Source of the DNA: a phage
Strand: one strand, 5' to 3'
Length of the DNA: 64,000 nt
Sequence record: PZ386959.1
The notes under the pieces are model-generated. The model was not told where the DNA came from. It saw nothing but the letters and a program-made list of their open reading frames with translations, and ran no database searches. The position numbers and the translations under genes were made by a program. Numbering within the stretch: the first letter of the stretch is position 1; each line of letters begins with the position of its first letter. This document shows, in pieces, positions 3,355 through 5,444 of the stretch.

Positions 3355-3868
3355 AATGACCTCAAAGTTATATTAAATTTTGTATTACATTGAGTATAAA
3401 AATAAGCTATAACACCTGACTTGTCAACAGATTTTATAGCTTATTTGGCAGATTTTTTATAAGGCTACTGCCATCCTTCCATACCACACCTCACCCAACC
3501 ATACCATGCCTTACCAGACCGCACCTTGCCTTATTAAAAGACCCTGTTTAAAGACCTTTTAAAAAGGTGAGTCTCATTTTAATGTAGCTGAGACTAACTA
3601 CCCATACATTACCTCGCCTAACCGCACCCGAATCAACCGGACTAGACCAAGCCCCACTGCACATCACCGAACCAAGCATCACTTAAAAATCCTCTTAGAA
3701 GACTCTTAAGTGATGTAATCGAATTTTTATGTAGCTCCGATTAACTACCCGCACTTTACCAAACCTCACCCTACCCTACCAGACCTTACCTAACCGCGCC
3801 GTACCTCATTAAAAGACCCTCTTAAAGACCTTTTAAAAAGGAGCCTCCGAAGAGGCTACCTAGTCAAC
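3355..3868. repeat. ORF-free region with G-poor CA-rich tracts and repeated hairpin/AAAAGACCCT..TTTAAAAAGG modules
   Basis: Three related modules around 3530-3610, 3680-3760 and 3800-3868 with palindromes AGTCTCA..TGAGACT, AATCGGA..TCCGATT and CATCACTTAA..TTAAGTGATG; a near copy occurs at 5040-5230. Confidence 0.6.
3836..3868 (-). terminator. intrinsic terminator-like hairpin
   Basis: Palindrome GAGCCTCCGAAGAGGCTAC; on minus strand read as GTAGCCTCTTCGGAGGCTCC followed by TTTTT, immediately 3' of gene 3869..4309. Confidence 0.55.
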
Positions 3869-4309
3869 TTAGAAAGGTTTTCTACGTTGCTTGTTAATGT
3901 TAGCTTTCATAGCAGCTAAATGGTTTTGCTGTTCAATTAGTCGTGAACGTTCTTGATGACTAAGTGCCATAGTGTTCACATTCTCAATCGCTTGAGTGGC
4001 TTGCTTTAAAGCACGACCAATCTTACCAGACATTTTACGTTTTGCAATAGTTGCTTGATGCTTAGGTTCAACCACACGATAACCAACACCCATTGAAGCA
4101 ACCAGATAAATCTTCTCTTCTTTAAGAAGCTTCTCAATAAACTTCTCAAGTCGGTTTAGACGTGTAAGCGCATAAGCCTTCATTTCATCTTCGTACTTAA
4201 CAATGTCACCTTGATAAGTTGGTTTCACAATACCTAAGAAGGTATCCATCTCAGAATGTGATACAGTGTCACCGTAACTAAACTTTGCTGCTAATGCTTT
4301 TGTATTCAT
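3869..4309 (-). CDS. hypothetical protein
   Basis: 146 aa ORF. Confidence 0.45.
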   Translation of the reverse strand: MNTKALAAKFSYGDTVSHSEMDTFLGIVKPTYQGDIVKYEDEMKAYALTRLNRLEKFIEKLLKEEKIYLVASMGVGYRVVEPKHQATIAKRKMSGKIGRALKQATQAIENVNTMALSHQERSRLIEQQNHLAAMKANINKQRRKPF

Positions 4310-4311
4310 AA

Positions 4312-4914
4312 TTAAACGTTACCTTCTGAAATAACTTCTACAGAAAAACGACCAAAGCGTGGACGCCAATCACCTACACCACAAAGGTTGCCAGCATTTT
4401 CAAGAACCATCAGAAGTTCCTCTTTGGTGATTTGCTCTTCATCGAACATCAAACCGAACTCTACAGACCAGTCACGGAAGATTGGACGGTAGCTCATAAC
4501 TCGTGCTGTACCAATCTTAACAGACTTAGCATAGATGAAGTCTGGATTCTTAGCAAGTTCTTGTGGGTTTGCTGGACAGTTCTTAATAGTCATTGGGAAG
4601 ACTACATCTGTCAGCATAATGGCTCGGTCAATTACCTTACCAAGTTTGTTGAGTTTTGCACCAGACTTGATACAAGCCTCAATCATCTCACCGTTCATAA
4701 CAAAACCTAGCTGCTCATCGTAGTAACAAGAGGTTACCAGTTGGCTTTCTGCTAAGAGCGCATAGTCTTCGTCAGTCTTTTTACGTTTACTGGACAGAGA
4801 CTTGTGATATTTTGTCAGAGGGTTTAATGGGTCTGACAGCGTATCGTTATGGCTCAGGAAAGGACGAGTACCAGTGATTTTGATATTTAACAGTTTCATA
4901 GCATTTAGCTCCAC
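4312..4914 (-). CDS. hypothetical protein
   Basis: 200 aa ORF, 2-nt gap to downstream gene. Confidence 0.5.
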
Positions 4915-5444
4915 ACTTTAGTTGATTGTTAAGTTGTTTGTAAAGAACCCTCAACAGAAGACTCTTTAGAAACTTGGTAGATTTTTAACGTGGCTACTAC
5001 CATCCACCCATACCAGACCAGACCAAGCCAAGCCCAACACTACCGAACCGGACACGACCAGACCTTATTAAAAGACCCTGTTTAAAGACCTTTTAAAAAG
5101 GTAAGTCTCATTTTAATGTAGCTGAGACTAACTACCCACACCAAACCATAGCATACATCGCATTACCGGACAGAACCATACTTTACCAAACATCACTTAA
5201 AAACCCTCTTAAAAGACTCTTAAGTGATGCTGGTGAGTACCTGTTGGTTTATGCTGCTCAGTATACTCACCAAATTTTCTATGTCAACAACTTTTTATAA
5301 AAAAGTTCTGATAGCTATATGTGTCACGAAACAAAAGATTGTAAACAAGACACCCATTGCAAAAGATGTGTCCAAAAGCTTACTTGCAACGTATGACAAT
5401 ACAAAGACAACCAGTATAAACAGAATGACTGTACTGAGCATAGT
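4915..5444. repeat. ORF-free region; second copy of the CA-rich tract plus hairpin module
   Basis: 5040-5150 nearly identical to 3525-3610 (TTATTAAAAGACCCTGTTTAAAGACCTTTTAAAAAGGT.AGTCTCATTTTAATGTAGCTGAGACTAACTACCC); 5190-5230 repeats the CATCACTTAA..TTAAGTGATG palindrome. Confidence 0.6.

Follow-up and report, generated by a model that had tools for sequence, protein, structure and literature searches.

Region 3447–5287 of the phage sequence PZ386959.1, of which a stretch of 64,000 nucleotides (the window) is analysed here, is with great confidence a complete type II VIPR (Viral Interference Programmable Repeat) locus on the minus strand of a Felix O1-like phage. VIPR systems combine the protein Vipr, usually an accessory gene (vap), and guide RNAs called vrRNAs (bioRxiv 10.64898/2026.04.26.720920; 10.64898/2026.04.26.720927; hereafter the VIPR preprints). 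The kind of element is already known, since 2026 from preprints, because the locus falls within the SUSP1 VIPR clade described there. Read along the minus strand, it comprises a promoter, two vrRNA genes (u5 and u4), vipr, vap1 and three further vrRNA genes (u3, u2 and u1), the five vrRNAs having 12, 11, 11, 16 and 10 repeats in order of transcription.

Five copies of one unit in a five-nucleotide register

An earlier note on this DNA had described two islands free of open reading frames (ORFs), each carrying the same module of a G-poor, CA-rich plus-strand tract and palindromes. The strings that it quoted are all located in the window, with the CA-rich tract beginning at 3479; a string search of the window places TTATTAAAAGACCCTGTTTAAAGACCTTTTAAAAAGG at 3531 and 5065, and the hairpin AGTCTCATTTTAATGTAGCTGAGACT, in two identical copies, at 3570 and 5104. 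The depletion of G is equally real, the plus-strand tracts having 4–10 G per 60–84 nt against 20% G in the window, and the minus strand is correctly described as reading into GGT-rich RNA, the tracts being runs of DGYNN pentamers on that strand. The register is strict (NNRCH on the plus strand, DGYNN on the minus strand). Two modules, however, was the wrong count: alignment and a profile search resolve five copies of one 120–150-nt unit, three at 3447–3841 and two at 4976–5229, and find no further copy in the 64-kb window. The second island also contains an ORF on the minus strand (5295–5441; 48 aa, conserved), and its non-coding part, to which the description as ORF-free still applies, is therefore limited to about 4915–5294.

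In a Fourier scan of the window, the five tracts give the five highest period-5 signals (4.2–6.5, with a background mean of 0.70, a standard deviation of 0.47 and a next best signal of 3.4), a periodicity far beyond chance. For a comparative profile, we assembled 18 relatives from IMG/VR with a 146-aa vap1 that is 99–100% identical, two GenBank phages and the window, a set in which the two intergenic regions occur in 39 distinct versions. The number of units per side varies from 1 to 3 and that of repeats per tract from 8 to 21 (mode 13), and 76 of the 88 tracts are distinct, although vap1 is nearly invariant across these loci. Among the 1039 pentamers of the 76 distinct tracts, position 1 is G in 78% and never C (0%), position 2 is G in 98%, position 3 is T in 81% or C in 10%, and positions 4 and 5 are near random.

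Tails and leaders covary as RNA

The 34-nt tail that follows each tract occurs in four sequence types and fits an H-type pseudoknot, in which the 4-bp stem S1 is GTAG/CTAC, AAGG/CCTT or GTGG/CCAC, the 5–6-bp stem S2 is AGTCTC/GAGACT, GGCAG/CTGCC, GGTAG/CTACC or AATCGG/CCGATT, and loop 3 is A-rich. Pairing is maintained in 96.2% of cells over 34 distinct tails, compared with 32–44% when the partner is slid, and nine of the ten pairs change on both sides. A leader stem-loop of 38–40 nt precedes each tract (94% paired, with 6 of 12 pairs changing on both sides), and in u5 and u2 its 3' arm extends over the first two repeats of the guide. The leader has two sequence types and a loop formed by a conserved, imperfect direct repeat, GGTCTTTAA/GGGTCTTTTAA. 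G•U and U•G intermediates appear in tails and leaders only when the minus strand is read; therefore the structured molecule is the gene-sense, G-rich strand.

These results bear on the functions that had been proposed for the islands. The option of non-coding RNA genes was the right one: they are vrRNA guide genes, a kind detected by small-RNA sequencing at the near-identical SUSP1 locus, where infected E. coli yield one vrRNA from the upstream side of the two genes and three from the downstream side (bioRxiv 10.64898/2026.04.26.720920). Promoter and terminator stacks account for part of the picture, in that a sigma70-like promoter and a terminator-like stem-loop lie at the edges, whereas the repeated palindromes are covarying RNA structures. 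Nothing favours nick or injection-pause sites, an idea that derives from T5, whereas the phage here is a Felix O1-like myovirus. In sum, the earlier note had the strand and the non-coding RNA option, and missed the 5-nt code and the link to the two enclosed genes.

Vipr and Vap1

The product of vipr matches chain D of PDB entry 36pp, 'SUSP1 Vipr protein', over residues 1–195 (E = 7e-128; the sole PDB entry matched), and is identical at 191 of 195 positions to the SUSP1 copy (IMG/VR contig L017). At 98% identity to the solved chain, it would adopt a RAMP fold with an RRM core, a G-loop and a thumb. The residues reported to contact the three flipped-out bases and the skipped base of the target (VIPR preprints), namely H17, K33, E71, M72, R138, C173, D177, W178 and R179, are all present; position 175 is valine in both the window and the SUSP1 sequence, and the preprint text names T175. 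Vipr has more than 500 metagenome homologues, none with a Pfam domain. The accessory protein, 99–100% identical in the 18 related loci, has no Pfam or PDB match.

The association of protein and pentamer array recurs outside this group of phages. A scan of IMG/VR for (GGTNN)6GGT gives at least 120 loci; among the matches listed, about 57 loci on unrelated contigs hold GGY/NN arrays in which NN varies and in which many tracts often follow one another in tandem, punctuated by a fixed motif, and in most loci with several tracts an ORF of about 190–210 aa directly adjoins the array on the same strand. At least 11 of these adjoining ORFs are homologous to the window ORF as mechanically listed (4312–4914), with E-values from 6e-17 to 2.5e-5. 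GGY/NN arrays much longer than those of the window occur in contigs L119 (3233–4394), L041 (2217–3406), L047, L030, L031, L126, L112 and L130, each with a Vipr homologue immediately upstream; that of L119 spreads 18 tracts across 1.15 kb, with GGCAGTT as the only punctuation and no hairpins in between. These long-array contigs are probably other VIPR types with a different array architecture.

Four of the five guides match one family of E. coli satellite islands

We scanned each guide with tolerance for mismatches against 14 fetched satellite loci, taking 80% or more of the NN bases as the threshold, 200 order-shuffled versions of each guide as controls, and skips of 0, 2 and 3 as alternatives to a skip of one target base per step. 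At 84–100% of NN bases, and only with a skip of 1, four guides (all except u4) match a single satellite family. Guide u5 (NN string GA TT AA AT TC CC AA GA AT AT TT GT) matches at 24/24 inside the gene for a 235-aa protein (L145 15009–15044); u3 matches at 21/22 in the intergenic region upstream of that gene (L142, L148, L165); u1 matches at 18/20 in the same intergenic region, 65 bp from the u3 site (L160, L165); and u2 matches at 26–27/32 inside the serine recombinase gene of the satellite. The best site of u4, in a satellite recombinase gene, reaches 17/22 and is below 80%; all of these scores are with the 1-nt skip. For u5, u3, u2 and u1, none of the 200 shuffles reaches the observed score. 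The alternative skips yield top guide scores of 15–21, none above 21/32. At the u5 and u2 sites, which lie within genes, the skipped bases are all at codon position 3. No self-target of 80% or more is found in the 64-kb window, the best 1-nt-skip match of any guide being 59–77%.

Two of the three IMG/VR contigs matched by the exact xNN pattern derived from u5, L142 and L144, represent variants of a chromosomal island of E. coli, and the sequence of L144 occurs at 100% identity within strain JNEC-KY173. Exact-pattern scans of IMG/VR for u3, u4 and u1 give no match.

The island itself (reference L145 9500–20600, from E. coli JNEC-KY173, NZ_AP045169.1; further loci L146–L149 and L160–L166) is a mosaic of about 11 kb found at three or more chromosomal sites, among them yecE (DUF72), wrbA-ymdF and tonB-yciI, and related sequence is present in about 570 of 5426 complete E. 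coli genomes. Its genes encode a serine recombinase, baseplate and tape-measure proteins, the 235-aa protein (annotated as hypothetical or transposase) and a Dam methylase; many variants include a helix-turn-helix (HTH) protein, the variable part being an HTH or an AP2/HNH module. Some satellites are reported to carry vrRNA-like tracts of their own (VIPR preprints); seven loci scanned here (L142 and L144–L149) contain no GGY/NN tract.

Proposed mode of action

Published work describes Vipr as a minimal RAMP homologue of about 20 kDa that branches before Cas5/6/7, and the vrRNA as 9–16 YNNGG repeats followed by a conserved tail, which is a pseudoknot in the SUSP1 clade; SUSP1 vrRNAs co-purify with Vipr (VIPR preprints). 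In the structure determined by cryo-electron microscopy, one protomer binds each repeat, with G1, G2 and Y3 flipped out and held by H17/D177, R138/W178 and E71/M72/R179, respectively, while NN pairs with target DNA and one target base per step is extruded. Transcription is repressed by binding to either strand, with no protospacer-adjacent motif (VIPR preprints). In the SUSP1 clade, 18 of the 20 vrRNAs with identifiable targets match a satellite with tape-measure and baseplate homologues (VIPR preprints).

Applied to the present locus, each GGY-NN pentamer along a vrRNA would be bound by one Vipr protomer, which would sequester the flipped-out GGY and display the NN dinucleotide. The joined dinucleotides would then pair with double-stranded DNA of the form xNNxNN..., skipping one base per step, and the resulting R-loop or triplex would block transcription. 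The guides would be aimed at the 11-kb E. coli satellite island, which presumably parasitises the phage.

Organization of the locus and its surroundings

The features of the locus are collected in Table 1, in order of transcription. All five RNAs would be made from the one promoter upstream of u5.

Table 1. Features of the VIPR locus and its downstream boundary (positions in the window).
Feature	Position	Strand	Description
Sigma70-type promoter of VIPR operon	5260..5287	-	TTGACA-N16-TATACT, 11/12 matches; directly upstream of first vrRNA; putative, consensus match only
vrRNA gene u5	5104..5229	-	Leader 5191-5229, 12 GGY/NN repeats 5138-5197, pseudoknot tail 5104-5137
vrRNA gene u4	4976..5101	-	Leader 5063-5101, 11 repeats 5010-5064, tail 4976-5009 (GTGG/CCAC and GGTAG/CTACC stems)
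vipr, 195 aa, RAMP-like guide-binding protein	4312..4899	-	ATG start at 4899; mechanical ORF listing starts at GTG 4914
vap1, 146-aa VIPR accessory protein	3869..4309	-	Directly after vipr, as in published SUSP1 operon
GC-rich UUCG stem-loop AGCCTCTTCGGAGGCT, terminator-like	3842..3857	-	After vap1; U-run overlaps u3 leader; may terminate transcription or only stabilise the end of the mRNA
vrRNA gene u3	3717..3841	-	Leader 3804-3841, 11 repeats 3751-3805, tail 3717-3750
vrRNA gene u2	3570..3715	-	Leader 3677-3715, 16 repeats 3604-3683, tail 3570-3603 identical to u5 tail
vrRNA gene u1	3447..3567	-	Leader 3529-3567, 10 repeats 3481-3530, tail 3447-3480 (AAGG/CCTT and GGCAG/CTGCC stems)
Promoter-like site of next gene (2971-3354)	3399..3427	-	TTGACA-N17-TATTTT; downstream boundary of locus, outside VIPR

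Two inverted repeats lie at the boundaries. The arms of an 8-bp repeat, GGTGAGTA ... TACTCACC (5232–5271), stand on either side of the VIPR promoter's -10 hexamer and start region, and the GGTGAGTA/TACTCACC hairpin would form only in read-through transcripts from the ligase gene. Directly behind the last vrRNA tail is a 19-bp repeat (3400–3446; 89% complementary; conserved in Felix O1), within which lies the -35 hexamer of the promoter-like site for the gene at 2971–3354.

All genes from about 0.8 to 10.6 kb are on the minus strand, and the neighbours of the locus encode a ligase, a small membrane ORF, a secreted-type protein and an HTH regulator. The hydrophobic 48-aa ORF at 5295–5441, between the ligase gene and the VIPR promoter, belongs to phrog_22006 (E = 7e-33) and is also found in several vipr-less relatives. 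No cas family is matched among the neighbouring genes, and the repeat families found are the five vrRNA units themselves. An Rfam 15 scan of the window matches only 24 tRNAs at 58.5–63.6 kb, with no curated RNA family at the locus at the gathering score, and ARAGORN finds no tRNA or transfer-messenger RNA in 3–6 kb. The tRNA gene cluster (n = 26, plus strand, 58545–63556) is typical of Felix O1-like phages.

This region of the window is 92–94% identical to many Felix O1-like myoviruses (Felixounavirus, Mooglevirus and Suspvirus). In the deposited genomes both intergenic regions are unannotated, except for automatic 'repeat_region' features in a few records, and the Felix O1 genome paper gives no description of the element (PMC3185647).

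The leader stem-loop and solo units

The first two repeats of u5 lie in the 3' arm of the leader and still match the target, outside the pattern used for the search; therefore maturation of u5 would have to open or cut the stem. The leader stem-loop would be a maturation signal; it may serve for processing, or else as a promoter or a site for a protein.

Felix O1 itself (86,155 bp) contains no vipr or vap1 in its whole genome (tblastn E > 0.3), yet retains a single complete unit, located between ligase and ORF87 (NC_005282.1 57720–57854, minus strand; L021 2220–2354). It consists of a sigma70 promoter, the same as that of the VIPR operon, a leader stem-loop, 11 GGY/NN repeats and a pseudoknot tail. 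Such a solo unit is also present in 7 of the 8 other vipr-less Felixounaviruses examined (L153–L159), with at least three different guides. The 5' part of the solo unit resembles u5 of the window and the 3' part resembles u1, which suggests either that the sequence between the outermost vrRNAs was deleted or that the solo guide may work in trans. When the guides of three such units (Felix O1, L27 and EC6) are scanned over the 14 satellite loci, none reaches 80%. The preprint text makes no mention of solo vrRNA units in vipr-less phages.

A further proposal, which we consider rather unlikely, is that the leader is a third vrRNA module, which would set the 5' end via RNase cleavage or control where Vipr loading starts, and that the solo units act in trans by borrowing or titrating the Vipr of a co-infecting phage.

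Alternative explanations

Very improbably, the tracts could encode protein sponges like the TRAP-bound trp leader or CsrB, in which the pentamers serve only to titrate a ring- or filament-forming protein or to scaffold it, with no DNA-targeting information. The period-5 triplet repeats do resemble the TRAP binding site, Vipr binds one protomer per repeat, and u4 and the solo units of vipr-less phages lack a detectable target. A sponge, however, would not need NN dinucleotides in four guides that match one satellite family at such levels, only with the 1-nt skip and with wobble phasing, and in the SUSP1 system reprogramming of NN redirects silencing (VIPR preprints). More improbable still are elements that act at the level of DNA or transcription, either Rho-loading (rut) sites on the plus strand against antisense transcripts, or an R-loop, origin or primase hot spot on a G-rich non-template strand. 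The tract lengths of 50–80 nt and the C-rich, G-poor plus strand fit rut sites, and the position of the locus between ligase, dihydrofolate reductase and polymerase genes fits an R-loop, origin or primase hot spot, in both cases as a resemblance only. There is no plus-strand promoter nearby, the wobble pairs assign the structure to the G-rich sense strand, G/C skew in general does not account for a strict 5-nt register in which one position is 98% G, and the element travels with vipr in unrelated phages of different gene context. Equally slight is the chance that the features persist as a decaying VIPR remnant, non-functional in this phage. About half of the related records lack vipr (235 match the region, about 118 with a close Vipr), and one guide has no target; against this, the phage has intact copies of vipr and vap1 that differ little from the SUSP1 genes shown to be active by experiment, pairing is kept in all five tails and leaders, and one guide matches the satellite perfectly.

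Several other candidates were rejected: two-tetrad G-quadruplexes, the RfaH ops element, pairing to the tRNA CCA end, boxA/nut-like antitermination (the leader loop resembles boxA at 9 of 12 positions by eye), a BREX GGTAAG decoy (GGTAA is not enriched beyond position frequencies) and ToxIN-like antitoxin arrays (Vipr has no ToxN Pfam match). These ideas, like those of rut sites, an R-loop origin and TRAP, were dropped because the adjacent ORF matched SUSP1 Vipr.

Some points weigh against a complete and working VIPR locus. Guide u4 has no match above controls on the 14 satellite loci, 24 of 200 shuffles equalling its observed score, and target matching covered those loci and IMG/VR. No separate promoter is found for the three downstream vrRNAs, which the terminator-like stem-loop (3857–3842) separates from vap1. 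The leader stem-loop is not accounted for in the preprint text consulted, and both preprints, from April 2026, are not peer-reviewed. Anatomy, protein identity, RNA covariation, target matches and codon phasing are observed directly; expression, Vipr-vrRNA assembly and silencing in this phage would carry over by analogy from the near-identical SUSP1 system. The expression of vrRNAs of about 100 nt, their co-purification with Vipr and repression by the ribonucleoprotein are demonstrated for SUSP1 and P. fulva only (VIPR preprints).

Comparison with known systems

The closest relative is the type II VIPR system of SUSP1, with which the locus shares Vipr (98% identical) and vap1 (99% identical), GGY/NN vrRNAs with a pseudoknot tail flanking vipr-vap1, a target satellite family with tape-measure and baseplate genes, the 1-nt skip and the wobble phasing. 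The two differ in that SUSP1 has one upstream vrRNA (L017) rather than two, so that the units number 1 + 3 there and 2 + 3 here, and in their guide sequences; in addition, this locus is known from sequence alone. One of its guides, with 16 repeats, is at the upper end of the published range.

Class 1 CRISPR-Cas effectors, in which Cas7 assembles on crRNA, have in common with VIPR a RAMP-fold protein that polymerises on a guide, a thumb that flips bases periodically, and a guide composed of a variable part and a conserved structured handle. VIPR differs in lacking a repeat-spacer array, cas1/cas2 and other cas genes. Its period is 5 nt, of which three are hidden and two read, with one target base skipped per step, whereas that of CRISPR is 6 nt with five read. 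In addition, VIPR is phage-encoded and directed against a satellite, and its guides are hard-wired genes, unlike the acquired spacers of CRISPR.

In the trp leader, TRAP binds 11 G/UAG triplets spaced by 2–3 nt in single-stranded RNA, one subunit per repeat, with a period of about 5 nt. This likeness was the lead that suggested a polymeric binder for the present tracts. TRAP differs in forming a closed 11-mer ring, in acting by attenuation and in having no homology; its spacer bases are uninformative, whereas the spacer dinucleotides of VIPR are the information. Type III toxin-antitoxin systems (ToxI/ToxN) likewise have a tandem structured RNA with a pseudoknot beside a gene of about 170–200 aa under one promoter, but ToxI repeats are 36 nt long and mutually identical and inhibit an endoribonuclease toxin, with no pentamer code and no DNA targets.

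Implications

VIPR is a newly reported way of RNA-guided DNA reading, in which two bases are read and one is skipped by means of a 20-kDa protein, and it has been proposed as the ancestor of the CRISPR RAMP effectors. The window adds no new kind of system. It reproduces the published rule independently from sequence, in the pentamer code, the pseudoknot, the link between protein and array in unrelated viral contigs and the wobble-phased satellite targets, and it documents VIPR, with another set of guides, in a mainstream Felix O1-like phage. The leader stem-loop and the solo vrRNAs may be worth follow-up. For annotation, the "empty" regions of 0.4–0.5 kb in more than 100 deposited Ounavirinae genomes are guide-RNA genes, and from the guides one can predict the E. 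coli satellite variants that are open to silencing by each phage.

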